Position numbers and translations under genes: made by a program
Notes under the pieces: generated by a model
Told to the model about the DNA's origin: nothing
What the model saw: only the letters and a program-made list of their open reading frames with translations
The model's database searches: none
In this document: positions 35,778 through 64,000 of the stretch, piece by piece
How the letters are laid out: each line of letters begins with the position of its first letter
Numbering within the stretch: the first letter of the stretch is position 1
Origin: Candidatus Nomurabacteria bacterium
GTDB taxonomy: Bacteria; Patescibacteriota; Patescibacteriia; HK-STAS-PATE-3
DNA: 64,000 bases
Direction: 5' to 3'
Assembly: GCA_023898465.1 (NCBI GenBank)
Contig: CP060223.1
Coordinates: 896,001-960,000 of the forward strand

Positions 35778-35808
35778 ACATACCCAGCTCACTGCTGGGT
35801 ATGTTTTT
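35778..35808 (+). terminator. rho-independent terminator of P1
   Basis: 11-bp stem acatacccagc/gctgggtatgt, 5-nt loop, then tttt. Confidence 0.8.
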
Positions 35809-35873
35809 ATTCAAAAAAGCCTTACTATGCTATAGTAGTATATATCTTTGAGAAGAAGAGGGGGTGAATATAC

Positions 35874-36230: not shown

Positions 36231-36249
36231 CGTACACTTCGCAAATTCT

Positions 36250-36286
36250 GCAAAAGCCCTACCTTATACGAGGGCTTTTGCTTTTT
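36250..36286 (+). terminator. rho-independent terminator of P2
   Basis: 11-bp stem gcaaaagccct/agggcttttgc, then ttttt. Confidence 0.8.
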
Positions 36287-36356
36287 CTGCGCAACTTTTA
36301 TTTTTCATGGTATACTGAATGCATTACATCTTTAGGTAAAGGAGGTGAATGTCAGA

Positions 36357-36725
36357 ATGACCATAAAACGATTTCTTCCCTTAGCGCTACTCGGACTTAC
36401 CTTGGTATTACTGCCTTCTACTGTAGCAGCTCAATCAACCGCCTTTACGATCGAAAATATTGGTGGATCAATCGGTCTCGGTACCGCTGATTTGAAGGAC
36501 ACCGTCATCAACATCATTCAATGGGTGCTTGGTATCCTTTCATTAGTAGCCGTTGTTATGATTATTTTTGGTGGCTTTACCTGGATGACTGCCGGAGGTG
36601 CTGAAGATAAAGTTGATCAAGCCAAGCGTATTATCACCGCTGCAGTAATTGGTCTTATCATCATCTTGTTGGCTTGGGCTATTGTCATCTTCGTCGCAAA
36701 TACAACGGCGAACGTTACCACTTAG
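36357..36725 (+). CDS. T4SS-pilin-like small membrane protein, paralog P3 (122 aa)
   Basis: SD AAAGGAGGTGA. The ATG at 36357 is preferred over the GTG at 36345. Tail ANTTANVTT. Confidence 0.7.
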   Translation: MTIKRFLPLALLGLTLVLLPSTVAAQSTAFTIENIGGSIGLGTADLKDTVINIIQWVLGILSLVAVVMIIFGGFTWMTAGGAEDKVDQAKRIITAAVIGLIIILLAWAIVIFVANTTANVTT

Positions 36726-46487: not shown

Positions 46488-47539
46488 GTTCGATGAAACA
46501 ACAAAGTGAACAGCTCATTCATGCCACCGAGCGAATCTTTCGTGAATGTGTGCAGACAAATGGGGCTATCACTATCTCTCCTGATAGTAAACTGGTAATA
46601 CCTCATCACGCTGCTTTTGTTACTGTGGCAGCACCTTTTGTTGGTTTAGAGCTTGCTCCAGAATTTTTTGCTTGGGTTAAAAAAACTCTAGAGAATGAGG
46701 AGAATAACGGAGCCTTAAGTAATGCCTATGATTGGGAGGGAAAAGCAACCCATTCGCCAGCCCGATTTGCACCCGAACAAAACGGCGCCATGCTCTGGAG
46801 TATTGATGCCTATATTGAACGACATCCAGAGGAGCTGGCTCATATGAAGGAATTAGTAAGCCTGCTCGTGCAAGGAATTACTCAGCACTGGAAAAAAAAT
46901 GGATTTTCGCGTACTACTAATGAGGTATGGGGGGAACATCATCACATAGGAGCGCCTGAGATGAATCAGCGCTTTACATATGCCCTAGCCGCCTGTGCAC
47001 ATGGGCTTGAACGTGCGGCCGCTCGCTATAAGCAACGGCGATGGAAAGCTATTGCCGGGCAAATGCGTGAGCATATAAATAATGCCTGGGATGAAAACAA
47101 AAAGACTTTTCATCGCGCGCTTGGTAAACATAATGATACAAGCATTGATAGTCTAACTCTCGGACTTTGCTGGCCTTATCATATTTACGAGGCAAAAGAG
47201 AAACGCATGCAGGCAGCTGTCGAACGCATTGAAGAGGTGCTTATTGATGGTGGTGGAGTGCACCGCTTCCAATATGATTACCACGACAGCGAAGGGGATG
47301 CAGAAGATGGTGGTGGTATTTGGCCAGCTCTTAATTTTTGGATGAGCATCTATTTTGTTGAACAAGGCGATGAGGCAAAGGCGCGGGCTTACTTCCAATG
47401 GGTATTAGAACGCGTGCATGAAGAACTCCCAGAACAAATGTTTAAAGATTTTCGTATCGGCATTACTCCTTTTGCCTGGAGTCACGCACTCTTTCTCTTG
47501 GCTGCTCATAGTTTAAAACTTCTCCCAAATGAAGCGTAA
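46484..47539 (+). CDS. glycoside hydrolase family 15-like (short alpha/alpha-barrel, glucoamylase-related)
   Basis: FTYALAACAHGLERAA..., GGIWPALNFWMSIYFVEQGDEAKARAYFQWVLE, and FAWSHALFL. Confidence 0.55.
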   Translation: MSSMKQQSEQLIHATERIFRECVQTNGAITISPDSKLVIPHHAAFVTVAAPFVGLELAPEFFAWVKKTLENEENNGALSNAYDWEGKATHSPARFAPEQNGAMLWSIDAYIERHPEELAHMKELVSLLVQGITQHWKKNGFSRTTNEVWGEHHHIGAPEMNQRFTYALAACAHGLERAAARYKQRRWKAIAGQMREHINNAWDENKKTFHRALGKHNDTSIDSLTLGLCWPYHIYEAKEKRMQAAVERIEEVLIDGGGVHRFQYDYHDSEGDAEDGGGIWPALNFWMSIYFVEQGDEAKARAYFQWVLERVHEELPEQMFKDFRIGITPFAWSHALFLLAAHSLKLLPNEA

Positions 47540-49004
47540 ACTTCGCATCATGAACGTAGCTGCAGAAGTGGCTCCCTATGCCAAAACCGGGGGCCTGGCT
47601 GACGTAGTACATGCGCTACCAAAAGAATTAGTACACCAGGGCCATAGCGTCAGTATTATCATGCCCTGCTACGGCTTCATGAAAAAGCAAAATATTCCCA
47701 TGACTGAGGTGGATCGCTTCCGCATTAGTGTGGGGAGTAAAAACTTTGGAGCGACTATCTATCAAACTGAATTTTCACCAGGCTTAACAATCTACTTTGT
47801 TGCCAATCACGAACTCTTTGGTCGTTCGCGACTCTATGGCTACCCAAACGACAACACTCGCTTCATGTTCTTTTGTAAGGCCGTTGTACGCTTTATTAAA
47901 GAAATGAATAACCGGCCTCATGTCGTTCACTGCCATGATTGGCACACCGGGTTAATACCAAACTACCTCAAGCAAAAATTTAATCACGACCCATCTCTCC
48001 GCTCAATCGCAACACTCTACACGATTCACAACCTACCTTTCCAATTCGGATCAGACTGGTGGAAGGTGCCGCCAAAGCAGCAAGATGACGGACGCGGCGT
48101 ACCCCCTGAAACACCGACGAAGAAGTTGAATCGAGTAAACTTTGCCAAACGCGCCTTACTCAACGCCGACATCATCAACACGGTAAGTGAGCGCTATGCT
48201 GAAGAAATCCTCACCCCAGAATTTGGCCAAGACCTTGATGGAATACTCCGACGTCGAGAAGAAGATGTCTACGGCATTGTAAATGGCATTGACTACACCG
48301 TATATAATCCGGTGTATGATAAAAACATCCCGGTAAACTACGACTGGAACCAGCTCGATAAAAAACAGCTCAACAAAAACGCCTTGCAGCGTAAGGTTGG
48401 CCTAGAGCAAAAAGCTGATATCCCGCTCATCGGGGTAGTGAATCGCTTAAGTGAGCAAAAGGGATTTAACCTGCTACGTGAAATTGCCTACGTGCTCGTG
48501 AAGCTGCCTCTGCAGCTCGTTATTGTGGGAAGTGGACATCCGGATTATGTGCGCTTCTTTAAGCGCTTAGCAAAAAAATATCCTAAGCGGATTGGCTTTT
48601 ACTCTCCTTTTACCGAGGAGCTCGCTTCGCTTACCTATGCTGGCTCTGACATGTTCCTCATGCCCTCGCGCTATGAGCCATGTGGAATTTCCCAAATGAT
48701 CAGTTTACGATACGGCTCTATTCCGATTGTCCGAGAAACAGGCGGGCTCTCTGACACTATTACCAATTTCAATCCAAAGACGCAAAAAGGTATTGGCTTT
48801 GTATTTTCTGGATATACCAAGGAAGATTTTCTCATCGCTATTGTCCGAGCCCTCGAAACCTATCGCTATGCACAGGTCTGGGAACACCTCACCTGGCGAG
48901 CTATGAAAACGTCATACTCATGGGAGGTGCCAGCAAAAAAATATGCGCAGTTATATCGCTTAGCTTATCGACATAAACGGGCACGAAAGAAGGGGACAAC
49001 ATAA
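47529..49004 (+). CDS. glgA: glycogen/starch synthase (GT5), copy 1
   Basis: MNVAAEVAPYAKTGGLADVVHALPKEL, HCHDWHTGL, and PSRYEPCGISQM. Confidence 0.9.
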   Translation: MKRKLRIMNVAAEVAPYAKTGGLADVVHALPKELVHQGHSVSIIMPCYGFMKKQNIPMTEVDRFRISVGSKNFGATIYQTEFSPGLTIYFVANHELFGRSRLYGYPNDNTRFMFFCKAVVRFIKEMNNRPHVVHCHDWHTGLIPNYLKQKFNHDPSLRSIATLYTIHNLPFQFGSDWWKVPPKQQDDGRGVPPETPTKKLNRVNFAKRALLNADIINTVSERYAEEILTPEFGQDLDGILRRREEDVYGIVNGIDYTVYNPVYDKNIPVNYDWNQLDKKQLNKNALQRKVGLEQKADIPLIGVVNRLSEQKGFNLLREIAYVLVKLPLQLVIVGSGHPDYVRFFKRLAKKYPKRIGFYSPFTEELASLTYAGSDMFLMPSRYEPCGISQMISLRYGSIPIVRETGGLSDTITNFNPKTQKGIGFVFSGYTKEDFLIAIVRALETYRYAQVWEHLTWRAMKTSYSWEVPAKKYAQLYRLAYRHKRARKKGTT

Positions 49005-50248
49005 TGCGCTGGGCCGCCCTCCTACATATTTATCAACCTCCGCACTGGGATGCTCGCGTCATTGCTAAAGTAGTGAGTGAAAGCTATCGACCTTTAGTGG
49101 ATATTTTAACGCGAAATCCCAAGATTAAGATTACGCTAAACATCAACGCCTCGTTGACTGAGCAACTTGCTCGACATGGCTACCTCGATGTTATTGATGG
49201 ATTACGCAGCTTGGCTGAACGAGGACAAATTGAATTTACTGGCAGCGCAAAATACCACCCGATTTTACCCCTCCTGCCAGCTGATGAGGTACGTCGTCAA
49301 ATCCGCCTCAACACTGAAACAAACCGAGCTCTCTTTGGTGATATTTATCGCCCACGAGGATTTTTCCCGCCTGAGATGGCAGTCGATCTCGACCTCATCC
49401 GCATCTTAGTGGAAATGGGATTTGAATGGGTAGCAGTTGACGAATTAGCCGGTGAGAAAAAACTTGGCGATCTTCCTTTAAATAAAAAATATTTAGTTGA
49501 GCCTTTTGATATCTCTCTGGTTCTACGCAATCGTTTCATGAGCGACTATCTGGCCTTTGCGGCTCCAATTGATAAGCCAGGTGAATTTTTTGCTGAGGTA
49601 GAAAAAGAAAAACGCTCAAAGGAAATTCTCATCACTGCAATGGATGGAGAAAACCTTGGCCACCACCGTCCAGGCACTGAACGACTATGGGAGGAGTTAG
49701 TAACAAATCCTTCAGTCGAAATGGTCACCTTCACTGAAGCGCTGGAAGGTTTTAGCACGCAGGAAAAACTCATGGTGCAGGAAAGCAGTTGGTCGACTCG
49801 AGCAATTGATCGAGTCCGCAATGCACCTTATCCGCTTTGGCAGCATCCGGAAAATCAACTTCATCAACTACAGTGGTCGCTCACCACGCTCATCATCGAA
49901 GCGATTAACCAAGCAGAGAAGCGAAGTGACCACACCATTGAACAAGCTCGGATTGCTTTAGACGAGGCGCTGTCTTCTGATCAATACTGGTGGGCCTCAG
50001 CCACGCCCTGGTGGAGTGTGGAGATTATTAATGAAGGAGCCGAGCGACTTGGTAAAGTGTTAGAAGCGCTCAGTGAAGTGCCGCCCGCTACGCAGAAAGA
50101 AGCGCGACAGCTCATTCGCTCAATTCGAGAAACTTCACGTCGCTGGCAGGACAAAGGAGTTGCTTCTCAGCGTATGGCTGAATACAACAAAGAAACAAAG
50201 CAAGTACATTACATGGCTGGACAACGCATTGACGGTTCTGCCAAGTGA
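49004..50248 (+). CDS. glycoside hydrolase family 57 protein, copy 1
   Basis: LHIYQPP, GQIEFTGS, FFPPEMAV, AMDGENLGHHRPG, and SSDQYWWAS correspond to the five GH57 conserved regions. Confidence 0.8.
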   Translation: MRWAALLHIYQPPHWDARVIAKVVSESYRPLVDILTRNPKIKITLNINASLTEQLARHGYLDVIDGLRSLAERGQIEFTGSAKYHPILPLLPADEVRRQIRLNTETNRALFGDIYRPRGFFPPEMAVDLDLIRILVEMGFEWVAVDELAGEKKLGDLPLNKKYLVEPFDISLVLRNRFMSDYLAFAAPIDKPGEFFAEVEKEKRSKEILITAMDGENLGHHRPGTERLWEELVTNPSVEMVTFTEALEGFSTQEKLMVQESSWSTRAIDRVRNAPYPLWQHPENQLHQLQWSLTTLIIEAINQAEKRSDHTIEQARIALDEALSSDQYWWASATPWWSVEIINEGAERLGKVLEALSEVPPATQKEARQLIRSIRETSRRWQDKGVASQRMAEYNKETKQVHYMAGQRIDGSAK

Positions 50249-50304
50249 TTGTACGGTAGGTGCGCATAGAACTTTCATTAGACAATTAATTCCTTAGAAA
50301 AAAC

Positions 50305-51675
50305 ATGTATTGGGCAAATTTCCTGCATATTTATCAACCACCAACCCAAAAACCATATTGGGTGAAGCGAGTCACTGAAGAGTCGTATCGAAAAATCGTT
50401 GCTGAATTAAAGCGCGCTCCGGGTGCTAAACTCACTCTGAACATTAGCGCGGTGCTTGTTGAATTGCTGGATAAGAATGGATGTGGAGATGTTATTGATG
50501 ACATTCGTCTCTTGCTCGAGCGTGGACAAATTGAATTAACCAGCTCAGCAAAGTTTCATCCATTACTACCAAAGATTCCCAAGGATGAAGTTATTCGACA
50601 AATCCAACTGAACGACGAAACGCATCGTAAATATTTTGGTGAACTCTACAAGCCGAAGGGATTTTTCCCACCTGAGATGGCCTTCTCTACCGATGTGGCA
50701 AAGATCGTAAAAGAGCTGGGCTATGAATGGATCATTGTTGATGAATTATCCTTCTCTCGCGAAATCGGCAATATTGATTACAGCAAGCGCTACACGGTTG
50801 AGGGTCTGGATGATTTTTCCATCTACTTCCGTGAACGGCGCATGAGCTACAAAATCCTTTCCGGACAATTAGGATCCGGCTCGCTTCTTATTCAGAGCCT
50901 GGGTGATCGATTAAAGAAAAATGAATACCTCCTAACTGCAATGGATGGAGAAACTTTCGGCCACCACCGTCCAGGTATGGAGCACCTCCTTTTTGAGATT
51001 TACGAATCAAAGGAACTCGAAACTATCCTTATCTCGGATATCCCAAAACACTTCCCAGAGTCCACGCCGATTGATCCTTTGCCATCCACTTGGGCGCTGA
51101 TGGAAAAAGACCTTGAAAAGAATGCGCCGTTTTCTCGCTGGCTTGATCCAGGTAACACAATTCATGAACGACAATGGGAATTAACCAACCTGGCGATTAA
51201 GGCGGTACATGCAAGCGATCAAAGCGATCCAAAATTTCCTGAGGTGCGGACAGCGCTTGATCGAGCAATTCACTCAGATCAATACTGGTGGGCCTCGGCA
51301 AAACCATGGTGGAGTATGGAAATGATTGAGGCAGGCGCTAAGGAGCTGTCTGATGTGGTATTAAACGCGCCAGGCTCAAGTGAAGAGGAGAAGGAACGAG
51401 CGAAACAGCTCTACCAAGAAATTATCTATACCGGCTTTGACTGGCAGCGATCTGGTTTAGTGGAAAAGCTTTCCCAGCAAGAGGATGAGGAAATACGACA
51501 GCGAACTGATGAAGCTATTCCTGAATTACCTGCTGAAGAAATTGATAAAATTATTGCGAACTTGCGCAAAGATATCGATGATGTGGTGAAGCGAGAAGAA
51601 TACGAGCGAGCAGCTCAATTGCGCAATCGCATTAAAGAACTCGAGCAATATCGAGACAAAAAAAGTAAAGAATAA
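50305..51675 (+). CDS. glycoside hydrolase family 57 protein, copy 2, with C-terminal UVR motif
   Basis: LHIYQPP, GQIELTSS, FFPPEMAF, AMDGETFGHHRPG, and HSDQYWWAS. The tail is IDKIIANLRKDIDDVVKREEYERAAQLRNRIKELE. Confidence 0.8.
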   Translation: MYWANFLHIYQPPTQKPYWVKRVTEESYRKIVAELKRAPGAKLTLNISAVLVELLDKNGCGDVIDDIRLLLERGQIELTSSAKFHPLLPKIPKDEVIRQIQLNDETHRKYFGELYKPKGFFPPEMAFSTDVAKIVKELGYEWIIVDELSFSREIGNIDYSKRYTVEGLDDFSIYFRERRMSYKILSGQLGSGSLLIQSLGDRLKKNEYLLTAMDGETFGHHRPGMEHLLFEIYESKELETILISDIPKHFPESTPIDPLPSTWALMEKDLEKNAPFSRWLDPGNTIHERQWELTNLAIKAVHASDQSDPKFPEVRTALDRAIHSDQYWWASAKPWWSMEMIEAGAKELSDVVLNAPGSSEEEKERAKQLYQEIIYTGFDWQRSGLVEKLSQQEDEEIRQRTDEAIPELPAEEIDKIIANLRKDIDDVVKREEYERAAQLRNRIKELEQYRDKKSKE

Positions 51676-51753: not shown

Positions 51754-52677
51754 ATGTCACGACTTTCCGCTGAAAAAGTACACTCACTACTCAAACAAAA
51801 AGCTGTTTTTAAGGCTGAGATTACCCATGTGGTACTTGAGAAACACAAAGCCTTTTCTCATTCCAGTCGACTTGCTCGCTATATCGTGTCTCTGGCAAAT
51901 GGGCAAACAAAATATATCCGAGCAAATGTTTGGCCAATCTCAGCTTTTCGTATTGCAGAAGCGCTCAGCGCACAGCAAAGCTTAAAAGCGCCTCAACCGA
52001 TATACTACGACAAGAGTAGTCACACTATTCTTTACGAGGAACTAAATGGTGACACCCTGCGCAGCGTGCCGCTCACCGCAAAAGCATGGAAGCCCATTAT
52101 TCCTAAGGTTGCTCAACTCCTAGCCGCTTTTCATCAAACGCCACTACCTAAGGGCTTAGCACCTGAGACGCAAAGCGCCGCAAAGAAGCGAAGAAAAAAC
52201 CTTGTCCAAGGAATACAAAAGGCTGATAAGGGATATGGCGCACTAGCGAAAGTTGCGTGTAGCCAGCTCGAGTCACAGATTGCTCGCCAGGCCGGAAAAG
52301 TAAAGGCACTCACCCATGGCGATTTCCAGGCAAGTAATATACTCATCGCAAAAAAGAATCTCTCGCTTATTGACTTCACGCTGAGTCGACCAAATCATCC
52401 AGCCAGCGACCTTGGTCTCTGGTTAGTACATTGGCAGGCTATGACGCGCGATCACCTTAGTCACACACAAAGGGAAGAGTTGGGCTATCTCTTTTTACAG
52501 TACTACTTCTCAGCCGTGCCAAAGGCCTGGCACGCACCTATCCGAGCAATGCTTCCAGTCTATGTGAGCGAGGCCACGCTCGAGGTCGCCGCTACCACCT
52601 TGCTTATGTACGGCGCCCACGATACCAATGTTCGCGCATTACTTGATGAATTATTTTCTAGTTTGCACTATGTCTGA
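51754..52677 (+). CDS. aminoglycoside-phosphotransferase-fold kinase (substrate unknown; maltokinase-like role possible)
   Basis: HGDFQASNILI catalytic loop and LIDFT (DFG-equivalent). Confidence 0.6.
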   Translation: MSRLSAEKVHSLLKQKAVFKAEITHVVLEKHKAFSHSSRLARYIVSLANGQTKYIRANVWPISAFRIAEALSAQQSLKAPQPIYYDKSSHTILYEELNGDTLRSVPLTAKAWKPIIPKVAQLLAAFHQTPLPKGLAPETQSAAKKRRKNLVQGIQKADKGYGALAKVACSQLESQIARQAGKVKALTHGDFQASNILIAKKNLSLIDFTLSRPNHPASDLGLWLVHWQAMTRDHLSHTQREELGYLFLQYYFSAVPKAWHAPIRAMLPVYVSEATLEVAATTLLMYGAHDTNVRALLDELFSSLHYV

Positions 52678-54130
52678 ACGCATCCTCTTTATCTCAGCCG
52701 AAGTAACACCGCTCGCAAAAGTCGGGGGACTGGCCGATGTGGTTGGCGCCCTACCTCCAGCTCTACGAAAACTGGGAGCTGACGCTCGTATCCTCATGCC
52801 AAAGTATGGCGTGATTGATGAAGAAAAATATCCCATGGAAATACGTGGGCAAGGCATCCCAGTCCAGATTGGACAAGGTACGGTGTATGTCGATCTATGG
52901 GAAACAAAATTACCTAATACTGACACTCCGGTCTATCTCATTGGTAATGACAAATTTTTCGGAGGAAGCCGTATCTATTTTGATGCTTCAGCTTTTGCCA
53001 GCCAGTTTGTGGAATTCGAGCGATTCCTTTTCTTTGCCATGTCGAGCGTGGCCGTGCTTGATGCACTCGAATGGAAGCCTACGATTATTCACTGCCATGA
53101 TTGGCACACCGGATTAATTCCCGCTTTACTCAAGCAGGAGAAGCCTCGCATCGCGACAGTCTTCACCATTCATAACCTAGGCAACCAAGGTAAATGGAAC
53201 ACGCCAGATATTTTCCGCTTCCTAGGTTTGCAAGCGCAGGATCGCGCATCATTTAGCCTGACCGACTCCCAGGGTAATTTTAATTGTTTGCTCCAAGGTG
53301 TAGTGAATGCAGATGCGGTAAATACGGTTAGTCCGAGCTATGCCAAAGAGATTCTCACTGCCGAGTATGGAGAGGGTCTCGAAAAAACACTTCAGCAACA
53401 AGGTGACCGCCTAATGGGAATACTGAATGGGATTGATGTTGAACGCTTTGACCCGAGTCGTAATCCTGACCTACCTGAACATTTCAGTGCGGAGAAGCTT
53501 GAGGGAAAAATACGAGCTAAGGAAGCGCTTCAAAAAGAATGCAATCTCGAAGTAAATAAAGAGGTCCCTCTTTTCAGCTTCATCGGTCGACTCACTGATC
53601 AAAAAGGTATGGACCTGATCGGACAATCAGTTGAACATATTTTGAAGCTTGGTGGTCAGCTGGTTCTACTCGGCAGTGGAATGGATGAATTTGAAAAAAT
53701 TGCCCAGGAAGCGGCGGCAAAATATCCCGGGAAGGTGTACACAAAAATTGGCTTTGACGCAGCACTGGCCCAACGGATATACGCCGGAAGTGACTTTTTC
53801 CTCATGCCCTCAAAATATGAGCCATGCGGACTGGGGCAAATAATTGCCATGCGCTATGGCACTATCCCAGTAGTCCGAGCAACTGGAGGCTTGAAAGATA
53901 CCGTGCCAGACTATACCATGAATAGTGCAGAGGGTAGGGGGTTTGCTTTTACGCCATATGCGGCCAGCGATCTCCAAGATGCTATTACCCGAGCGCATCA
54001 GCTTTATCAAAACCAAACCGAGTTTATTCAACTGCAAAAACGCATCATGGGTATTGACCTCTCCTGGAAGCAATCAGCTCGCCAATACCTTGATCTCTAT
54101 ACCCGCGCCCGACAAGAACAACGACCATGA
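52670..54130 (+). CDS. glgA: glycogen/starch synthase (GT5), copy 2
   Basis: ILFISAEVTPLAKVGGLADVVGALPPAL, HCHDWHTGL, and PSKYEPCGLGQI. Confidence 0.9.
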   Translation: MSERILFISAEVTPLAKVGGLADVVGALPPALRKLGADARILMPKYGVIDEEKYPMEIRGQGIPVQIGQGTVYVDLWETKLPNTDTPVYLIGNDKFFGGSRIYFDASAFASQFVEFERFLFFAMSSVAVLDALEWKPTIIHCHDWHTGLIPALLKQEKPRIATVFTIHNLGNQGKWNTPDIFRFLGLQAQDRASFSLTDSQGNFNCLLQGVVNADAVNTVSPSYAKEILTAEYGEGLEKTLQQQGDRLMGILNGIDVERFDPSRNPDLPEHFSAEKLEGKIRAKEALQKECNLEVNKEVPLFSFIGRLTDQKGMDLIGQSVEHILKLGGQLVLLGSGMDEFEKIAQEAAAKYPGKVYTKIGFDAALAQRIYAGSDFFLMPSKYEPCGLGQIIAMRYGTIPVVRATGGLKDTVPDYTMNSAEGRGFAFTPYAASDLQDAITRAHQLYQNQTEFIQLQKRIMGIDLSWKQSARQYLDLYTRARQEQRP

Positions 54131-55128: not shown

Positions 55129-55195
55129 CTCGTACTTGCCAAATCCCATGTCGTAGCCGAAGCATTGAGCTTCGGCGGCTTCAATTGATAAAAGA

Positions 55196-55254
55196 AAACC
55201 CCGACCACAGCGCTAGTCCTCGTGCATAGACACGTGGATAGATGTGATCGGGGA
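55196..55254 (-). terminator. hairpin terminator, homologous copy 1 (shares the 19-mer aaaccccgaccacagcgct with 55901-55919)
   Basis: On the minus strand, ccccgatcaca...tgtggtcgggg is followed by a T-run. Confidence 0.55.
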
Positions 55255-55264
55255 AAGTACGGAG

Positions 55265-55843
55265 CTACTGGTAGATTGACTTCACCTGACCCCAACTCCT
55301 GCTGAGGGTTGGCACCGGCCCGATTGTACCATAGGTCCGGAAGAGCCAATCATACGGCTTTTCTTCGCCTGCACTGTAGGCGGTGCCGCCAGGGTATTCG
55401 CATCCACCTTCTACCCGTCGTTCGGTGGCCCAACCGTTGTTTGAATGCGAAACAGGATGAAGGTAGTAGGTGGCGCCAGGCTGAATGGTCACACCACCGA
55501 AGTCGAAACTGATCCAGTTGTCCCCGCCCGACTCAACGTCTTGCGTCGCAACAGCCAGAACACTCTCGCCAGGCACCACTGAGTTCTGGAGAAAGAGCGT
55601 CACCGTACCCGCGGCTGGGTAAAAGAACAGCTCAACACCGCACAAGTAGTCCATCGTCGGCGTGAAAGACTGCAACAAACAACTTGAAAGTTCTTCCTCT
55701 GGAGTGCAGTACATACTGTGTCCAAAAGTCGGACCGATGATTGGTTCACAGCTCTGGTCGAGGTCACCGCAGGGTGCTTGCGCATTCGCGCTGCTTGCAC
55801 ACAGCACCACCAAAGCAAAAACGAGGCCACTGAAACGCGACAT
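55265..55843 (-). CDS. hypothetical secreted Cys-containing protein (192 aa), GC-rich
   Basis: SD GGGAGGTG. Signal peptide MSRFSGLVFALVVLCASSANA/QA. No family recognised. Confidence 0.45.
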   Translation of the reverse strand: MSRFSGLVFALVVLCASSANAQAPCGDLDQSCEPIIGPTFGHSMYCTPEEELSSCLLQSFTPTMDYLCGVELFFYPAAGTVTLFLQNSVVPGESVLAVATQDVESGGDNWISFDFGGVTIQPGATYYLHPVSHSNNGWATERRVEGGCEYPGGTAYSAGEEKPYDWLFRTYGTIGPVPTLSRSWGQVKSIYQ

Positions 55844-55900
55844 GAGACACCTCCCACTTTGTTTGTAAGGAGCCTTGATTAGCTTTACTGCTTCAATAAT

Positions 55901-55943
55901 AAACCCCGACCACAGCGCTGCGCAAGCACAGCCGTGGCCGGGG
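55901..55943 (-). terminator. hairpin terminator, homologous copy 2
   Basis: On the minus strand, ccccggccac...tgtggtcgggg is followed by ttt. Confidence 0.55.
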
Positions 55944-55951
55944 AAGTACTG

Positions 55952-56470
55952 TCACCAGCCATCCATAGTGGTTGACTGGTAATGGAAGTTGCGCTCCTCG
56001 ATCATGCCGGGATCAACGAGACGATCTCCATAGTAACGCCAGTAGTAAGCCCAGCGTCTCATATCGTCGAAGCTCAGACGCCTCCCAGTACAAGAGAGAC
56101 ATAGGTCACCGGCCTCCAAGGTGCGGCAACGCAAATCCCAGTAGAGAGAACCCTCCGTATCGAGTGGGTATTGACGCCACTGACCCCTGCACCAAGCAAG
56201 AGCGTCGCGCAGATCACGGTCATTGCGCTGATGCCACTCCTGCACCAACTCAGCTTGGAACTCGGGCTCGAGGGTCACTCCCTGGGAAAGAGTGATGAGA
56301 AGATTCTGGGCGCTCCGATCTCCGCCGGCCTGACCCTGAATCGTTCTCCAGGGCTTGGCCTTCATAAACGCGAGGTCCCAGACCTTCTCTCGGTCGCTCC
56401 GAGCATCAGCCTGAGCTAATGTGGCGAAACCGAACAGCATCAACACTAGGACGGTAACCCGAATACGCAT
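55952..56470 (-). CDS. hypothetical secreted Trp/Arg-rich protein (172 aa), GC-rich
   Basis: SD AAGGAGGAG. Signal peptide MRIRVTVLVLMLFGFATLAQA/DA. Confidence 0.45.
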   Translation of the reverse strand: MRIRVTVLVLMLFGFATLAQADARSDREKVWDLAFMKAKPWRTIQGQAGGDRSAQNLLITLSQGVTLEPEFQAELVQEWHQRNDRDLRDALAWCRGQWRQYPLDTEGSLYWDLRCRTLEAGDLCLSCTGRRLSFDDMRRWAYYWRYYGDRLVDPGMIEERNFHYQSTTMDGW

Positions 56471-56518
56471 GCATCTCCTCCTTGTTTCATGTGCGGTTGT
56501 CGATGTACAGCTGCGTAC

Positions 56519-56547
56519 CGTATACTACGGGTAAGCAACCTTGTCAA
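56519..56547 (-). promoter_or_regulatory. candidate promoter of the 55952..56470 gene
   Basis: Minus strand TTGACA-17 nt-TATACG. Confidence 0.5.
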
Positions 56548-56586
56548 TCCTTATCCTTCGGAATTCAAGTTTATAACATTAGCATT

Positions 56587-56961
56587 ATGGGTAGTTTCAT
56601 CGAAATCAACGACACGCTCCAACTTACTACTGAGCAAGGCTTTCCCTCGGAGCTTACTTTAGAGAAACACTTGAAAAAGGCGTTCACTGTTGAGGATTTT
56701 AAAGACCAAGTCTTTGAATTTCACCACAAGCCGGACCTGCGGATCTACCACCTTAAACCTACTCGAGTATTTCTCGTTCATAACATTGATGGTAAGTGGT
56801 TGTATTGGGGCCACGCCATGATACTTGAAGAAACGCTCCACGCAGAAACGAAAACAACTTCCGGGAAATTTATCATCACAAAAATTTATTCACCCGAGCA
56901 CCAAAGAACAATGAGCACTATCGAAGTAAGCGAAGGCAAGGAGTATCCTTTTGATGAGTAA
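56587..56961 (+). CDS. hypothetical protein (124 aa)
   Basis: ATG at 56587 (MGSFIEINDT...). Overlaps the xth start by 8 nt. No motif recognised. Confidence 0.5.
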   Translation: MGSFIEINDTLQLTTEQGFPSELTLEKHLKKAFTVEDFKDQVFEFHHKPDLRIYHLKPTRVFLVHNIDGKWLYWGHAMILEETLHAETKTTSGKFIITKIYSPEHQRTMSTIEVSEGKEYPFDE

Positions 56962-57724
56962 ATCTCTAGTGCTGCAATCGTGGAACATTAACGGTATTCG
57001 GGCTGCAGTGCGTAAGGGCTTTACCGATTATCTCAAAAAAGAAAAACCTGATGTAATTGGTCTGCAGGAAATAAAAATAAGCGAAGAAGCGCGCTTGGCT
57101 ACTGAGTTTGATTTTGGAGGATATGTGGAGCATTGGCACTCAGCAAAAAAACCTGGATATTCCGGCACTGCGGTGTTGGTAAAAAACGGTATCGCACATA
57201 CAGCTCTGCCGAAACTAGCCTGGGACGACGAAGGACGAATTCAAGCCATCGATATGGGGAAGTATATTTTCCTTAATATCTACTTTCCTAATGCCAGTAA
57301 TGACGGCTTGAAGCGCCTAGCCTTTAAGATGCAGTGGAATGAAAAGCTGCTTAACTACCTCAAGCAACTTGAAAAGAAAAAACCACTTGTCATCACGGGT
57401 GACTATAATGTGGCACATGAAGAAATTGACCTAGCTCGACCGAAAGAAAATACCCAGAGCCCGGGCTTCACTCCTGAGGAGCGTACCTGGATGACGAAGT
57501 TTCTCAAAACAGGTTACGTTGATACTTGGCGTGAAGCCAATCCGAAGAAAGTACAATACACCTGGTGGAGTCAGCGCGGTGGCGCTCGCAGCCGAAATGT
57601 AGGCTGGAGGATTGACTACTTTTGTGTGAGTCAAAAATTCCTCAAACAAACAACTAAACCGGCTATCCTCGACCAAGTGATGGGCTCAGATCACTGTCCG
57701 GTTAGTTTAATAGTATCCTCATAG
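56954..57724 (+). CDS. xth: exodeoxyribonuclease III
   Basis: LQSWNINGIRA, GLQEIK, and a C-terminal GSDHCPV. Confidence 0.9.
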   Translation: MSKSLVLQSWNINGIRAAVRKGFTDYLKKEKPDVIGLQEIKISEEARLATEFDFGGYVEHWHSAKKPGYSGTAVLVKNGIAHTALPKLAWDDEGRIQAIDMGKYIFLNIYFPNASNDGLKRLAFKMQWNEKLLNYLKQLEKKKPLVITGDYNVAHEEIDLARPKENTQSPGFTPEERTWMTKFLKTGYVDTWREANPKKVQYTWWSQRGGARSRNVGWRIDYFCVSQKFLKQTTKPAILDQVMGSDHCPVSLIVSS

Positions 57725-57937
57725 CCGCTGCCTCCGGGCTTTGGCGATGATGAAGTAACGTTTATTCATCTCATATTCCATTGACATCTGCTTTGACTCA
57801 AGGTAATTCAGCTAACCATAGAAATACTGTGGTTAGCTCCTTGAAACAAGTCGAATTTGGAGTACTGCAACGCCTGCAGACAGCCAAAATCGACGCTTCC
57901 ATTAGCGTGACACTGAGCACGTTAAGTGGAGGTTATC

Positions 57938-58894
57938 ATGTCACGGCAAGAAACCTGTCCTCGATGTGTAAAGAAAAACGTTTACGGCGCTCCTCGCCTG
58001 AGAATCACCACTGGAATCACTTGGCTTTGTTACATTGCCTTGTTTACGGCGCTCCTCTGTCTCGCCATTTTCCTGGGAGAGCCAAGCTCTTTCAAGAAGA
58101 GCATTGTGCTCATGTTCATCATCGTTAACGCGGCAACTCTGCTAGGCGCCGCTCACGACCTCCTGATACCCAAGCGGGTTTGGATATGGCGCGATAGAGG
58201 AGACAGTGTACATATTCACAAGGAAGCTCCAACGCTTCCCGACTTCGACTTCTGTGGATTCAAACATCCACTCGTTATGGCCTGGATCAACCGGCCGTGG
58301 CGTCGAGCTGACCTAAGTTGGGGTGCTGACACCTCGGGCATGTGTCTTCCTGAAGTCACTATGTCTTGGACACGCAAACGTCCATACTTCATCGTCACCT
58401 ACCACCAGCTTGGGACGATAACGCAGACTATCCGGATTCGGATAACTGAACCATCCACCATGCTCGACACCCTGAACTGGATTCGCTTCGCACCCAACCC
58501 TTTCAACTTTCAGGCGCACCTCGAGTCGCTAGATAATGAGAGGAGAGTCTCCCATACACTACACGAGCAAACAGAGTGGCTTACCTGGCTCAATGAACTC
58601 GTGTGCGCGCTGTACGTGGCTACCGAGCGACGGCGTACCTCGCTTGGCCAATCTCCTCATGGTCAGTTTGTTCACGCTTATCTCGGCCACCTGCTTGGCT
58701 TCATGCGAGTCCACAACATAACAGGAAGGGAAAGCCCAAACCATGCGGTCCGGGTAGAGGATGAGGCAACACAGATCGCCGACACCATCGCGTCAGCTAA
58801 GCAGGAGGGGGGTAAACACTGGGCAGAACGAGCTGCGGACAAGGTTTGGGAAAACCGAAATCGAGCAGCGCTTGAACCCGTCACTGAGTCGTGA
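57938..58894 (+). CDS. hypothetical 2-TM protein with large cytoplasmic domain (318 aa), GC-rich
   Basis: SD GTGGAGGT. N-terminal CPRC, then two TM helices, then KRVWIWRDRGDSVHI. Confidence 0.5.
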   Translation: MSRQETCPRCVKKNVYGAPRLRITTGITWLCYIALFTALLCLAIFLGEPSSFKKSIVLMFIIVNAATLLGAAHDLLIPKRVWIWRDRGDSVHIHKEAPTLPDFDFCGFKHPLVMAWINRPWRRADLSWGADTSGMCLPEVTMSWTRKRPYFIVTYHQLGTITQTIRIRITEPSTMLDTLNWIRFAPNPFNFQAHLESLDNERRVSHTLHEQTEWLTWLNELVCALYVATERRRTSLGQSPHGQFVHAYLGHLLGFMRVHNITGRESPNHAVRVEDEATQIADTIASAKQEGGKHWAERAADKVWENRNRAALEPVTES

Positions 58895-58935
58895 CAATTC
58901 TACGCGCCCTGATCTCTAGGAGATTGGGGCGCTTT
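58891..58935 (+). terminator. 45-nt repeat/terminator, copy 1
   Basis: 13-bp hairpin gcgccctgatctc-tag-gagattggggcgc followed by ttttt. 44 of 45 nt identical to 59944-59988. Confidence 0.8.
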
Positions 58936-59100
58936 TTACATTGACGAAATTTTCTGCGCTTGCTAGCGTGAGTCCGCATGAGGAAATGCCTCACGTAAGC
59001 TCTTTACAATAGAGCAATCCTGTAACAAGCCGACGCAAGTAAGGCAATTTGCATCCGCTTGTTTCCCGCCTTGAAAAATCAGGGCCGGTAAGGAGTAAAA

Positions 59101-59931
59101 ATGACCTGCGCGAAAGAATCTACCAAAGAGTTGGATCTCACCAACTACCTACCTCTTCCCAGGGGCGGCTTGCGATGGACGGTCTCCACGCTATGCTTTT
59201 CCCTTGCTGCTTTTCTGGGACTCTTCTTGCTCTTCAAAATGGCCGTCAATAGTGAGGGGCTATGGTGGTCACGCCTGTTCTACGGCTGCCTGATTATCGC
59301 CATCTTAGTCTCACTACTTGGATTTTTTGGCTTGAAGCTACTCCGATTCAACTATGCGTATTGGAGAAGAAATGTGAGGGGTTACTACATCTCCTATCCG
59401 CAAATGGATCGAGTGTACTATCGTGGCGAGCGGGCCAAGGAAAGCTTGGCACTCGTAGAGATGCACCTAGCTCTGGGCGGTTGGCGCCATCAACTTGGGA
59501 GCTTTCATCGAGGCTTTGTGGTTACCTCGCGAGACACTTCCGCGGACTCCATCTTTTGGTATGGAGTAAAAATCGTTCAACAATCACCACAACCTTCAGG
59601 GCTTCGCGTGATCGTCTACAGTCACCGGAAAAAGGAACAAACACCACCAATGAGCCTACGGCATGCCAGCGTGCTTATCGGTAAGTTATGCCGCAACCAG
59701 AGCTCCTTGGAACTTGAGTTTGCAACCTTTCTCACCAGTGAAGATGGGCTCGTTAACGCCTGTATTCGCTTGCTTGAACGGATAAAGACAACCTCGCGCT
59801 TATCCTCTACACAAGAAGGTAGGGCCTTTGCTCGAGATCTTGCAACTGCGGCACTCAGTCACTCCATTCGTGGAACTCGGGAACACCGAGAACTTGTGGA
59901 TCTGCAAGAATACTGGGGTCGAACCAGGTAG
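59101..59931 (+). CDS. hypothetical 2-TM protein, divergent paralog of 57938..58894 (276 aa), GC-rich
   Basis: SD TAAGGAGT. Two TM helices, then FNYAYWRRNVRGYYI. The C-terminal stretch GLVNACIRLLERIKTTSRLS compares with ELVCALYVATERRRTSLGQS in the upstream gene. Confidence 0.5.
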   Translation: MTCAKESTKELDLTNYLPLPRGGLRWTVSTLCFSLAAFLGLFLLFKMAVNSEGLWWSRLFYGCLIIAILVSLLGFFGLKLLRFNYAYWRRNVRGYYISYPQMDRVYYRGERAKESLALVEMHLALGGWRHQLGSFHRGFVVTSRDTSADSIFWYGVKIVQQSPQPSGLRVIVYSHRKKEQTPPMSLRHASVLIGKLCRNQSSLELEFATFLTSEDGLVNACIRLLERIKTTSRLSSTQEGRAFARDLATAALSHSIRGTREHRELVDLQEYWGRTR

Positions 59932-59943
59932 ACTCACTTCTCA

Positions 59944-59988
59944 GTGACAATCCTACGCGCCCTGATCTCTAGGAGATTGGGGCGCTTT
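59944..59988 (+). terminator. 45-nt repeat/terminator, copy 2 (abuts the convergent tyrS stop)
   Basis: Same 13-bp hairpin followed by ttt. Confidence 0.75.
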
Positions 59989-61180
59989 ACTTTATCTGCA
60001 CAAACCGTCGCTTCCCAACCTGAAGCAAGGGTGCCTTTTTTGCATCCAATTCCTTTGCGCCATCTTTCTCTACCTTGCCATCAATACGGACCGCTCCTTG
60101 CTCAAGCATGCGACGTCCTTCTGACTTTGATGGCACCAACTTTGCGCTGACTAAAATTTCTAACAGCGTGCTTTTTTGCTTCAGGCTGAACTCTGGCACC
60201 TCGTCTGGAGTGGCACCTTTTTGAAATACATTTTGAAATTCAGTTGCCGCCTTATCCGCATCGTTTAAGGAATGATATTGTGCAACCAGAGTATGGGCCA
60301 GCTTTGCTTTGACGTCGCGGGGATTATGGCCTGACTTCAAGCCTTGCGCCATTTCCTCGATCTCGGATAATGGTAAACGACTTAGTAAGGTAAAAAACGT
60401 AACAATCTGCTCGTCAGGAATACGCATGAGCTTGCCATACATATCTTTAGGCGTGTCAGAGAGCAATATTGCGTTGCCATAACTCTGACTCATCTTGCGC
60501 TTCCCGTCAGTACCGACGAGCAAGGGCATAATTACTAAATCTTGCGGAGACTGTTTTGCAGCCTCTTGAAGTGGGCGCGCCTGCAGCTCGTTAAATGTTT
60601 GATCACGACCAATCACTGTCACGTCAGCTTTCAACATTACCGAATCATAACCCTGCAAAAGGGGGTAGGTAATTTCGTGCAATCCAATCTCTTTGCCCTC
60701 TTTCATGCGTTGCTGAAACATGTCCCGCTCAAGCATGCGCTGGACGCTCACCTGAGAGAGTAAGTGAAGAAAATCCTCGGCTGACATTTTATCGTACCAC
60801 TCAGCATTTGAACGTACTTCAACCTTCTTAATATCAAGTATTTTACCTAACTGTGTAACATATTTCTTGGCCAGGCGATGTACTTCTGCGGCCGAACGAA
60901 GCGCTCGACGCTCAGCTCGATCAGTTGGATCACCGAAACGGGCCGTAAAACCACCGATTAGGAACTGGATAGTGTGACCTGCTTCTTGAAATTGGCGCAA
61001 CTTTTCATAAATAACTGCGTGACCCAAATGGAGGTCGGCAGTGGTCGGATCAACTCCGTGCTTAATCTTTAGCTTCTTGCCTGAGGCTAGCTTCTTCTCT
61101 AAGGATGCTCGAACTACGACCTCCGCAACGCCTCGGTCAAGTAAATCGCTTCTCATTGATTGGGCCTGTTTTTTCGCCAT
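59987..61180 (-). CDS. tyrS: tyrosine--tRNA ligase
   Basis: DPTTADLHLGHAV (HIGH), KMSQS (KMSKS), and a C-terminal S4 domain. Confidence 0.95.
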   Translation of the reverse strand: MAKKQAQSMRSDLLDRGVAEVVVRASLEKKLASGKKLKIKHGVDPTTADLHLGHAVIYEKLRQFQEAGHTIQFLIGGFTARFGDPTDRAERRALRSAAEVHRLAKKYVTQLGKILDIKKVEVRSNAEWYDKMSAEDFLHLLSQVSVQRMLERDMFQQRMKEGKEIGLHEITYPLLQGYDSVMLKADVTVIGRDQTFNELQARPLQEAAKQSPQDLVIMPLLVGTDGKRKMSQSYGNAILLSDTPKDMYGKLMRIPDEQIVTFFTLLSRLPLSEIEEMAQGLKSGHNPRDVKAKLAHTLVAQYHSLNDADKAATEFQNVFQKGATPDEVPEFSLKQKSTLLEILVSAKLVPSKSEGRRMLEQGAVRIDGKVEKDGAKELDAKKAPLLQVGKRRFVQIK

Positions 61181-61263
61181 AAGAACAGTTGAAAGTATAG
61201 CAAAAAAATGCTAAGATAAGAACTGCTTCGGGGCGCATACTCGGCCCCGCTTCTCTACAACGA

Positions 61264-64000
61264 ATGCCTATCCCTACTCTCACCCCACGCTCTCGTAATA
61301 GTGCGGCTACCTGGCGCAGTGCTAAAAATATGCCGGGATCTGAGCGACCTCGCAAATCTCGCCCCATATGGAAACGGCGGGAATTTTGGGTGCGTCGCGC
61401 GCTTCCTGTTGCTGCCGGACTTTTTCTGATTGGCGTGCTAGGAGTGGTGGGATTATTTGCCTGGTACTCACGCGACCTGCCTGACCCAAACGGTATAGTC
61501 GATCGTTCAGTTGCGCAAAGCACTAAAATATATGCTCGCGACGGGGAAACTCTACTCTACGAGGTGCACGGCGAAGAACGTCGCACTGTTGTTGAGTTAG
61601 AAAAAATTCCATTTAACTTACAAAAAGCCACCATTGCCATTGAGGATAAAGATTTTTACAAGCACGGCGGCATTGATTTTCGTGGACTCTTCCGGGCTGT
61701 CTTTACAAACATTATTAATCTCGACGTAACGGGTCAGGGCGGTTCAACTATCACCCAGCAGTTTGTAAAAAACGCCATCCTTACTACTGAGAAGAGCTAC
61801 GTTCGAAAAATTAAAGAGGCGGTGCTGGCCTATCAAATTGAGAAACGCTTTACAAAAGATCAGATATTAAAGCTGTACTTCAATGAAATTCCCTATGGTC
61901 GTAATGCTTATGGCGCCGAAGCTGCCGCGCAGGTATATTTTGGCAAATCAGTCAGCGAGGTGAGTCTAGATGAAGCAGCGCTCTTAGCCGCCCTCCCTCA
62001 GGCTCCGTCCTACTACTCGCCTGATGGTAATCATGTTGATCTACTTGAAGGTCGGCAAGGTCGCGTCCTGCAAAACATGGCTGACCAGGGCTACATTACT
62101 CAAGAAGAAGCTGACGCAGCAAAAGAAGAGGACACGGTGGCGAAAATAATTCCACGCCGAGAAGTGATTAAAGCGCCGCACTTTGTTATCTATGTAAAAG
62201 AGCTACTCACTGAAAAATACGGCGAGAAGCAGATAGAGCAAGGGGGATTGCGAGTCATCACCACACTCGAGCCAAATCTGCAGCAAATGGCTGAGGATGC
62301 GGTGAGTAATGGTATGGCAAAAGTGGAGCGCTACGGTGGATCAAATGCGGCCCTGGTATCCCTAAACCCACAAACCGGCCAAATACTCGCTATGGTTGGC
62401 TCGCGCGACTACTTTGATGCCGAACATGATGGGAACGTAAACGTGGCCCTTAGACCACGTCAGCCTGGTTCCTCTTTTAAACCCATAGTCTATGCTCAGG
62501 CTTTTCGGGAGGGCTACACTCCGGAAACTATTTTATTTGACCTGATTACTAACTTTGGTGGCACACCAAACTATATTCCACAAAACTACAACGGCCGAGA
62601 AAATGGTCCAGTCACTATGCGTAAGGCTTTAGCTGGTTCTCTTAATGTCCCAGCAGTAAAAACACTTTATTTGGTTGGCGTAAATGATGCAGTGAATTTA
62701 GCAAAGAGCCTCGGCTACACCACACTGAATGATCCTGACCGCTATGGACTCTCGCTCACCTTAGGGGGCGGAGAAGTGAAGCTCTTAGAGCACACGGCTG
62801 CCTTTGGTGTTTTTGCAAATGAGGGCGTACGACAATCTACTGTTGCCATACTCCGAGTCGAAGATCGAAATGGAAAGATCTTAGAAGAAACAAACGAGGG
62901 TGAAGGAGAGCGCGTCTTGGATCAAAATGTTGCTCGCGAAATTTCCAGCGTACTCTCTGATAATGGAGCCCGGGCATATATTTTTGGCACGCAAAACTCC
63001 CTTATTCTGTCTGGTCGACCAGTTGCCGCAAAAACTGGTACTACAAATGATTTCCGAGATGCCTGGACCATGGGCTACACTCCTAACCTGGTTACCGGGG
63101 TATGGACAGGGAACAATGATAACTCTGAAATGAGCACCGGCGCTGATGGGTCAGTTATTGCGGCTCCGATTTGGAAAAGCTTTATGCAAGCAGCCACGGC
63201 CGGCGCTCCAGTGGTAAATTTCACCGCACCAAAGCCCAATGATGCAGAAAAACCAATACTCCAAGGTCGTTTAAGCTCTGGGGAAACCTTAACAGTAGAT
63301 ACGATCACTGGTAAGGAAATCCCAAGTGAGTGTGTAGATGAATGGCCCGAGGAGTTTAAGAAGCAGAAAGAATTAGAGCAGGTGCACACTATCCTTTATT
63401 TTGTGAATAAAGATAATCCCCGTGGACCAGTTCCTGATAACCCAGCCAGCGACCCTCAATTCACTCGTTGGGAAGAACCGGTCCGACGCTGGGCCGAAGA
63501 AAACGACAAGTTGGTCGATCGTCCAGCCAAGGAGGATTGTGATCTTCGAACAATAGCAAACACTCCAAAGGTAACAATTACTTCACCTGCGTCTGGAAGT
63601 ACTATTACGGGGAACAGTGTCTCGGTAAGCGCTACGGTGGACGCGACGCGCGCTATTACACTTACAAAATTCGTTATTGACGGGGTGGAAATAACCGAAG
63701 ACACAACCGCGCCTTTCCAAGCCTCGCTCGATGTGAGTGATCTTGAAAATGGTTATCATAAGTTAAAGGTTATTGCCTACGATACTGTTGAACAAGCAGG
63801 GTCTCAAACAATTGACGTAATTATTCAACACGAAAGCTCTGGCACAAGCATTTACTTCACTGCCCCAGTACCCGGCAGTCGTCATGCAATAAGCGATGGG
63901 GCGATATCAATTAGCGTTGTAGCCCAAAGCGCGATTGGTATTGATTCAGTAAAAGTAAATATCACCGACGCGAATGGTGTAGTCACAAAACTTTCCACTT
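61264..64000 (+). CDS. class A penicillin-binding protein (GT51 transglycosylase plus transpeptidase) with C-terminal Ig-like repeats; continues past window end
   Basis: Own translation from ATG 61264. TM anchor, then IAIEDKDFYKHGGID and GGSTITQQ (GT51). Then QPGSSFKP, SLN, and KTGTTND (transpeptidase). Absent from the ORF track because no stop occurs before 64000. Confidence 0.9.
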   Translation, partial: MPIPTLTPRSRNSAATWRSAKNMPGSERPRKSRPIWKRREFWVRRALPVAAGLFLIGVLGVVGLFAWYSRDLPDPNGIVDRSVAQSTKIYARDGETLLYEVHGEERRTVVELEKIPFNLQKATIAIEDKDFYKHGGIDFRGLFRAVFTNIINLDVTGQGGSTITQQFVKNAILTTEKSYVRKIKEAVLAYQIEKRFTKDQILKLYFNEIPYGRNAYGAEAAAQVYFGKSVSEVSLDEAALLAALPQAPSYYSPDGNHVDLLEGRQGRVLQNMADQGYITQEEADAAKEEDTVAKIIPRREVIKAPHFVIYVKELLTEKYGEKQIEQGGLRVITTLEPNLQQMAEDAVSNGMAKVERYGGSNAALVSLNPQTGQILAMVGSRDYFDAEHDGNVNVALRPRQPGSSFKPIVYAQAFREGYTPETILFDLITNFGGTPNYIPQNYNGRENGPVTMRKALAGSLNVPAVKTLYLVGVNDAVNLAKSLGYTTLNDPDRYGLSLTLGGGEVKLLEHTAAFGVFANEGVRQSTVAILRVEDRNGKILEETNEGEGERVLDQNVAREISSVLSDNGARAYIFGTQNSLILSGRPVAAKTGTTNDFRDAWTMGYTPNLVTGVWTGNNDNSEMSTGADGSVIAAPIWKSFMQAATAGAPVVNFTAPKPNDAEKPILQGRLSSGETLTVDTITGKEIPSECVDEWPEEFKKQKELEQVHTILYFVNKDNPRGPVPDNPASDPQFTRWEEPVRRWAEENDKLVDRPAKEDCDLRTIANTPKVTITSPASGSTITGNSVSVSATVDATRAITLTKFVIDGVEITEDTTAPFQASLDVSDLENGYHKLKVIAYDTVEQAGSQTIDVIIQHESSGTSIYFTAPVPGSRHAISDGAISISVVAQSAIGIDSVKVNITDANGVVTKLST

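Follow-up and report, generated by a model that had tools for sequence, protein, structure and literature searches.

How do two neighbouring genes whose coding sequences do not resemble each other come to be followed by nearly the same hairpin? The question is raised by a locus in a metagenome-assembled genome (MAG) of Candidatus Nomurabacteria, a member of the candidate phyla radiation (CPR; Paceibacterota). We analysed 64 kb (hereafter the window, to which all positions refer unless another locus is named) of its 1,082,586-bp source contig. The two genes, both on the minus strand, are gene A (55265-55843, 192 aa, NCBI locus tag H6760_04750) and gene B (55952-56470, 172 aa, H6760_04755), and the hairpins lie in two modules behind them, T_A (55190-55260) and T_B (55895-55949), also on the minus strand. 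A sequence-only reading of this DNA had proposed that the two genes are horizontally acquired orphans, carried as cassettes each made of a promoter, an open reading frame (ORF) and a terminator. We found that the same region contains a second pair of genes with a different duplicated module, that it lies at a junction whose content varies among relatives, and that gene A has relatives elsewhere. The reading that we favour, and to which we give an even chance, is that of a lineage-specific islet of probably acquired secreted or membrane proteins, with terminators duplicated on site when outer genes were added.

Two related modules, predicted to be terminators, behind unrelated genes

The 19-mer AAACCCCGACCACAGCGCT occurs at exactly two sites in the window, 55196-55214 and 55901-55919. 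Two matches were obtained in none of 100 shuffles, a repeat far beyond chance, and no third site appeared in the window when three mismatches were allowed. On the minus strand, which is the transcribed one, each copy forms the 3' arm of a hairpin and runs into a U-tract, so that both the sites and the role of the 19-mer as the distal arm, as first described, were borne out by the search and by folding. T_A consists of a lead-in GTACTTT (55260-55254), a 5' arm CCCCGATCACA (55253-55243), an inner stem-loop, a 3' arm inside the 19-mer (55214-55196) and the U-tract UUUUCUUUU (55198-55190). T_B has the lead-in GTACTT, the 5' arm CCCCGGCCACGGC (55943-55931), its 3' arm inside the other 19-mer (55919-55901) and the U-tract UUUAUUAUU (55903-55895). 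The outer stem of T_A has 11 bp (folding energy dG -30.8 kcal/mol, z -4.5) and the stem of T_B 13 bp (dG -34.7 kcal/mol, z -4.7); none of 200 shuffles folded as well as either of them. The 5' arm begins 11 nt past the stop codon of gene A, within the 10-12 nt initially given for both genes, but only 8 nt past that of gene B.

The two 5' arms differ at two adjacent positions (A-U/U-G vs G-U/C-G), with pairing to the identical 3' arm kept in both modules. A 15-nt indel distinguishes the loops, the extra inner stem-loop giving T_A a 32-nt interior. The modules also have the GTACTT lead-in in common and possibly ATTGAAGC beyond the U-tract, at slightly different distances. Beyond the modules homology is marginal, since the upstream stretch GTAC-TTCCCCG is equalled in score by 71 of 2000 shuffles and the downstream ATTGAAGC by 119 of 2000. 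Similarity between the two gene units is limited to the terminator module, and the early claim of homologous 3' flanks behind coding regions that are not obviously homologous proved accurate. We also considered A and B as paralogues and rejected this possibility (BLASTP E 0.33, DNA similarity only in the modules). The exact 19-nt arm and the conserved lead-in present in both indicate that T_A and T_B are paralogous rather than independent of each other. Judged by sequence and folding, they are ordinary-looking predicted Rho-independent terminators of common descent. No Rfam family was matched between 54900 and 60300, even at permissive thresholds, and a permissive terminator scan of the whole window, which over-called (553 matches), was discarded. 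Elsewhere, in another Paceibacterota MAG (locus L020, 5509-5548), we observed a perfect palindromic bidirectional terminator, AAAACCCCGACCACTTCAGTATACTGAAGTGGTCGGGGTTTT, which agrees with T_A and T_B in the stem core but in nothing else, probably by coincidence.

A second pair of modules in the same region

A comparable layout was recovered on the plus strand with ORFs C (57926-58894, 322 aa) and D (59101-59931, 276 aa), each with two predicted N-terminal membrane helices and without a family match in the library searches. Behind ORF C lies T_C (58891-58935, plus strand), a 45-nt module with the hairpin GCGCCCTGATCTC-TAG-GAGATTGGGGCGC and a T-run. Its copy T_D (59944-59988, plus strand) follows ORF D and abuts the stop codon of the tyrosyl-tRNA synthetase (TyrRS) gene. 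T_C and T_D are 98% identical and form a 13-bp terminator hairpin unrelated to that of T_A and T_B. Both ORFs are GC-rich and unrelated in sequence; a paralogous relationship was rejected here too (BLASTP E 0.73, DNA similarity only in the 45-nt modules), and no similarity extends past the 45-mer. Direct repeats thus bracket gene A (705 bp apart) and ORF D (1053 bp apart), and each of these bracketed genes adjoins a conserved flank, the GalT-like gene in the case of A and TyrRS in that of D.

Two independent Logan assemblies show the A/B arrangement of the NCBI MAG unchanged, with 0 and 1 mismatches. The agreement of three independent assemblies indicates that the arrangement is real and not an assembly artefact. 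The Logan contigs break within the 45-nt repeat, ORF D being alone on a 1077-bp contig.

The junction between GalT and TyrRS varies among relatives

Via the GalT-like protein (54-70% identity) we recovered 12 related loci (L029-L040 range), whose synteny delimits a lineage-specific variable region from the end of the GalT-like gene (55128) to the TyrRS stop codon (59987), that is 55129-59986. These 4.86 kb contain genes A and B, a gene for a 124-aa protein, xth, and ORFs C and D. In five of the loci (L031, L032, L034, L035, and L039), GlgA-GalT is directly convergent with TyrRS, with a simple bidirectional terminator between them. Other sequences occupy the junction in three more: two ORFs in L030, one for a membrane protein of 107 aa and one for a secreted protein of 319 aa, a 667-aa secreted repeat protein in L036, and, in the closest relative L029, at least 750 bp of unrelated sequence that probably represent a different insert. 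Neither paired terminators nor the present modules were found in the GalT/TyrRS loci of the relatives. The conserved flanks are therefore GalT and TyrRS, and neither A nor B belongs to the conserved core of this lineage. The block had been described as interrupting a GalT-like gene and xth; the first is indeed a flank, but xth lies within the variable region.

Base composition also sets the two genes apart from most others, in line with the original description of a GC-rich block in AT-richer surroundings. Their GC contents, 0.554 (A) and 0.566 (B), lie 5-6 standard deviations above the value of 0.46 +/- 0.017 obtained from 32 further long ORFs; their third-codon-position GC (GC3) is 0.61-0.64. 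The xth and 124-aa genes have native composition. The CofD-like (0.552) and PfkB-kinase (0.573) genes at 859-1869 and 4101-5138 have a GC3 of 0.57-0.61, so that the GC heterogeneity of this genome is not confined to unannotated ORFs.

Gene A encodes a divergent member of a widespread family

Gene A is preceded by a ribosome-binding site, GGGAGG (55850-55855, minus strand), 6 nt ahead of the ATG. The N-terminus of its product resembles a Sec signal peptide (...SSANA followed by QA), and the protein has 7 Cys, with a Cys-rich N-terminal stretch; the cysteines are also present in the nearest subfamily. A word-indexed search of 5.8 billion proteins returned protein A itself only. By contrast, an exhaustive HMMER search of 1.84 billion cluster representatives recovered 103 relatives at E<=1e-3; for 12 of these the E-value is 1e-10 or lower, and the best is 45% identical over the full length. 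The view of A as an orphan could thus not be maintained, and the case is a warning about method, an apparent orphan in a fast indexed search having more than one hundred relatives in an exhaustive one.

The members of this family have in common the motifs DQ, GQxFxP, GW..FDF, PG.TY, YPxG.A, and D..FRTY. Their domain is found both in secreted proteins some 190 aa long and in large surface proteins, where it is repeated or combined with PKD, fn3, cadherin-like or dockerin domains. At E<=0.01 the Pfam model DUF4082 (PF13313) was matched by 12 of the 67 family members, the lowest E-value being 8.8e-6; a bit score was seen only for the relative P0013, whose 22 bits fall below the gathering cut-off of 28.4. 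For protein A itself, neither Pfam nor NCBIfam gave a match even at E<=1. From these profiles, protein A can be read as a divergent member of a widespread, uncharacterised DUF4082-like family. Its structure, modelled by AlphaFold with the 67-sequence alignment (mean predicted local distance difference test, pLDDT, 85.3), is a jelly-roll beta-sandwich; the single-sequence model (pLDDT 38.6) was not usable. When the model was compared with the PDB by Foldseek, nothing matched at E<=1e-3 and no TM-score exceeded 0.5. The resemblance of this beta-sandwich to carbohydrate-binding modules suggests a binding or surface protein, and protein A is most likely, as judged from the model, a surface-associated or secreted binding protein. 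The term effector, which had been applied to it, is not supported by such a fold.

The C-termini of the family alternate between PEP-CTERM, IPTL-CTERM, a membrane anchor with a basic tail, nothing, and a motif of the type WGxVKxxYR. Five of the 67 members have a PEP-CTERM and one an IPTL-CTERM, while one member weakly matched the NCBIfam model choice-of-anchor R (choice_anch_R, NF041539). The last type, (S/T)WGx(V/I)KxxY(R/Q), was found in 19 sequences (about one fifth of the family), namely protein A, where it corresponds to residues 183-192 (SWGQVKSIYQ), and 18 relatives (e.g. P0003, P0007, P0008, P0038, P0078, and P0090), at the C-terminus or a few residues off. No NCBIfam or Pfam model covers it and a literature search returned nothing relevant. 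Since it swaps with tails of the PEP-CTERM type within one family, it may be a sorting or anchoring signal.

Four distinct contigs that carry A relatives (six loci) have GC contents of 0.51-0.675, and the relatives with the C-terminal motif come from contigs of 62-67% GC that are not recognisable as CPR contigs. Gene A was probably acquired from a GC-richer bacterium, as suggested by these comparisons.

Gene B and its promoter-like site

Gene B has the ribosome-binding site AAGGAGGAG (56475-56483, minus strand). Its product also begins with a sequence resembling a Sec signal peptide (...TLAQ followed by AD), and the mature part, in which Trp and Arg are frequent, contains 9 Trp and 4 Cys. The codon-position GC pattern, together with the signal peptide and the ribosome-binding site, indicates that B is a real gene. 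The initial description of two genes with signal peptides, strong ribosome-binding sites and several Cys or Trp residues agrees with these observations, and both products, which look secreted from their N-termini, are probably exported by the Sec pathway. Protein B had no match in Pfam, NCBIfam, PDB, PHROGs, PADLOC, plasmids, phages or viral contigs, and in the word-indexed search it matched itself alone. The proposal that remote homology and structure could place both proteins was thus fruitful for A, for which a family was found and a fold modelled, but not for B, searched against the libraries.

Upstream of gene B, the minus strand carries the promoter-like sequence TTGACA-17-TATACG (56519-56547; TTGACA at 56547-56542, TATACG at 56524-56519), which had been called a textbook promoter. 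The sequence is present, but its -10 hexamer lacks the conserved last T, the promoter scan did not list it, and such sites are not above chance in the region (4 found vs 5.7 expected from shuffles); it is a match to the consensus only. No promoter-like site was found for gene A between T_B and its ribosome-binding site. With such a site at B only, the label of promoter-ORF-terminator cassette fits at most gene B and does not describe gene A. On the plus strand, a divergent site TTGTCG-18-TATACT (56497-56526), ahead of the 124-aa gene/xth operon, has a -10 hexamer that overlaps that of B on the palindrome GTATAC.

Proposed origin of the islet

In the reading that we favour, the islet, of which the 1.4-kb block first described is a part, would have been built up at the junction of the convergent core genes for the GalT-like protein and TyrRS. 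T_A and T_B would go back to a single short ancestor of about 55-75 nt, copied most likely locally, when an outer gene joined the core flank, which would have left gene A between direct repeats. The same process would have been repeated independently at the other end of the islet, leaving ORF D between the 45-nt repeats. As for expression, transcription would most likely begin at the promoter of B, T_B would end most transcripts, with read-through or an unrecognised promoter serving A, and T_A would shield the convergent GalT gene.

Several points weigh against this reading. No donor was identified, and the equally GC-rich CofD and PfkB genes mean that composition alone is no proof of transfer. 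Since the word-indexed search that found only B itself also missed every A relative, the orphan status of B is unproven. No strain lacking A or D was found, which makes the order of insertion a conjecture, and further copies of the modules may exist outside the window. Finally, the loop and the 5' arm have diverged between T_A and T_B, but T_C and T_D still show 98% identity, so that the same origin for both pairs would mean very different times.

A more ambitious reading has two separate parts, gene stacking at a hotspot between convergent genes of CPR bacteria that needs no recombinase and leaves duplicated terminators as footprints, and the C-terminal motif as an undescribed sorting signal; taken together, we consider them a long shot. 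Each incoming gene may have joined at the terminator bordering the core gene, or may have brought an allelic copy of it. A possible route would be homology-facilitated illegitimate recombination between strains with different genes at one site, and the islet would grow outward as ORF-terminator units bracketed by terminator repeats.

The main rival of the favoured reading is co-transfer, in which A with B and, separately, C with D would each be a two-gene fragment from a donor that used the hairpin as its common terminator or repetitive extragenic palindromic (REP) element. We regard it as unlikely, though worth serious consideration. A and B lie next to each other on one strand and are near-identical in GC content, and each pair has its own module type. 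REP-type palindromes just past stop codons are common in GC-rich bacteria. Moreover, the stem CCCCG..CAC/GTGGTCGGGGTTT is a terminator in many unrelated genomes, and our hairpin-pattern scan recovered 23 unrelated terminator loci with this stem core. However, the scan, which required exact arms and covered 185,579 species-representative genomes (a collection that does not include the source genome), contained no donor: the version of the hairpin found in the window, including AGCGCT, was present in none of these genomes, and the only multi-copy family, in Allokutzneria, differs in sequence. The exact modules also had no match in viral contigs. Nor do the relatives of A point to a transferred pair, since tblastn revealed no B-like neighbour on L027 and L028, and the neighbours on the three other contigs were housekeeping genes or had no family match.

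It could also be supposed that A and B are native, fast-evolving genes, old residents under diversifying selection whose GC content reflects local or expression-linked bias; this seems to us rather improbable. CPR genomes do contain many lineage-specific secreted proteins, GC contents of 0.55-0.57 are reached in this window by the ordinary genes CofD and PfkB, and the junction also houses xth and the 124-aa gene, both of native composition. Against long residence, the space between GalT and TyrRS is devoid of genes in five relatives. The nearest relatives of A, moreover, lie in the 62-67% GC DNA mentioned above, outside recognisable CPR contigs, and even the best of its relatives is only 45% identical.

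The original proposal of cassettes can be extended to mobile units of one ORF and one hairpin whose recombinase would be site-specific or would recognise hairpins, as in integrons or in miniature inverted-repeat transposable elements (MITEs) or REPs. The layout of each unit, a single ORF with an imperfect palindrome, would suit it, as would the position of the outermost gene between direct repeats at both ends of the islet, and the breaks of the Logan contigs inside the 45-nt repeat make D behave as a repeat-bounded unit in the assembly graph. Yet no integrase, transposase, REP-associated tyrosine transposase (RAYT) or other recombinase was recognised among the genes at 45-64 kb. Those with families encode a YebC-type regulator, RuvC, GlgA, GH57, a kinase, GalT, xth, TyrRS, and a penicillin-binding protein (PBP); besides A and B, five ORFs there have no family match (one of 348 aa upstream of the cluster, the 124-aa gene, ORFs C and D, and one of 128 aa at 61137-61523). 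The module ends read GTACTT(T)CCCCG and GGGGTTT(T/A) and contain no attC core sites, GGGGTTTTCT differing from GTTRRRY and RYYYAAC being absent; no clear target-site duplication flanks the hairpin arms. An identity as integron attC sites with an integrase was accordingly rejected. Each module type is present in two copies, adjacent to each other, in the window, and no copies were found in the hotspots of the relatives or in viral contigs. In addition, B comes with a promoter-like site of its own, and the U-tracts of the modules are those of plain terminators. We thus consider mobile cassettes very improbable.

Lastly, a chance convergence of GC-rich stems and T-runs, for which the 23 unrelated loci with the same stem core might speak, or a chimeric join, is effectively refuted by the repeat search and the independent assemblies: the 19/19 identity takes in AGCGC, outside the outer stem of T_A, the GTACTT lead-in is conserved and ATTGAAGC follows both U-tracts, and the same sequence is found in the NCBI MAG and both Logan assemblies with 0-1 mismatches.

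If the favoured reading is true, the locus would be a small, clean example of a reduced CPR genome gaining surface or secreted proteins at a fixed core-gene junction, such proteins being likely tools of a host-attached lifestyle. The terminator repeats mark the site and could be used for finding presence/absence variants in populations. The WGxVKxxYR-type motif is a minor lead for research on protein sorting.

Other features of the window and of relatives

Upstream of the islet, a glycogen-type cluster (47529-51675 and 52628-54130) contains two GlgA-like and two GH57-like paralogues; stretches of 57-65 nt with 80-82% identity recur in it about 1.3 kb apart, and the same duplication is found in relatives. 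In a distant relative (L037), an exact 44-nt AT-rich repeat (ATTCGTAATTCGTATATTCGTATC...) occurs at 3966-4009 and 7617-7660 of that locus, 3.65 kb apart, its copies adjoining paralogous glycosyltransferase-like genes. At 34809-36725 of the window, there are four tandem paralogous genes, whose products (118-163 aa) combine a signal peptide with two membrane helices; DNA identity among the last three units is 77-83%. The products may resemble the small pilin-like proteins that are common in CPR genomes. The window also contains ten loosely clustered tRNA genes, among which ARAGORN identified a tRNA-Ile with the anticodon UAU (18993-19068), unusual for bacteria, besides a normal tRNA-Ile(GAU) at 28731-28807.

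Comparison with known systems

T_A and T_B resemble known Rho-independent terminators in their GC-rich stems of 11-13 bp, the U-tract that follows directly, their location 8-11 nt past the stop codon and a stability greater than that of shuffles. They differ from them by the exact common 19-nt arm and lead-in and, in T_A, by the extra inner stem-loop. Like integron cassettes, the units consist of one short ORF with an imperfect palindrome behind it, and units with similar palindromes adjoin each other, but there is no IntI at 45-64 kb, there are no R''/R' sites, only two units of each type are present, and the palindromes, with their U-tracts, look like plain terminators. REP elements and bacterial interspersed mosaic elements (BIMEs) are likewise GC-rich palindromes just past stop codons, with conserved arms and variable loops; here, in contrast, two adjacent copies are found in 64 kb and no RAYT gene at 45-64 kb.

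The family of protein A has its beta-sandwich in common with DUF4082 and, as in the choice-of-anchor proteins, combines one domain with variable anchors; A nevertheless matches no model, and the WGxVKxxYR-type end lacks one in the libraries. As in strain-variable hotspots and islets, the region has conserved core flanks, varying content, an apparently atypical composition and secreted or membrane products. Unlike them, it has no tRNA, integrase or phage gene at its borders, includes xth with its native composition, and has terminator repeats that bracket the outermost genes. Terminators, hotspot and domain family are all of known kinds and leave current understanding unchanged; the bracketing of the outermost gene by terminator repeats, seen twice in this islet, is a modest curiosity.

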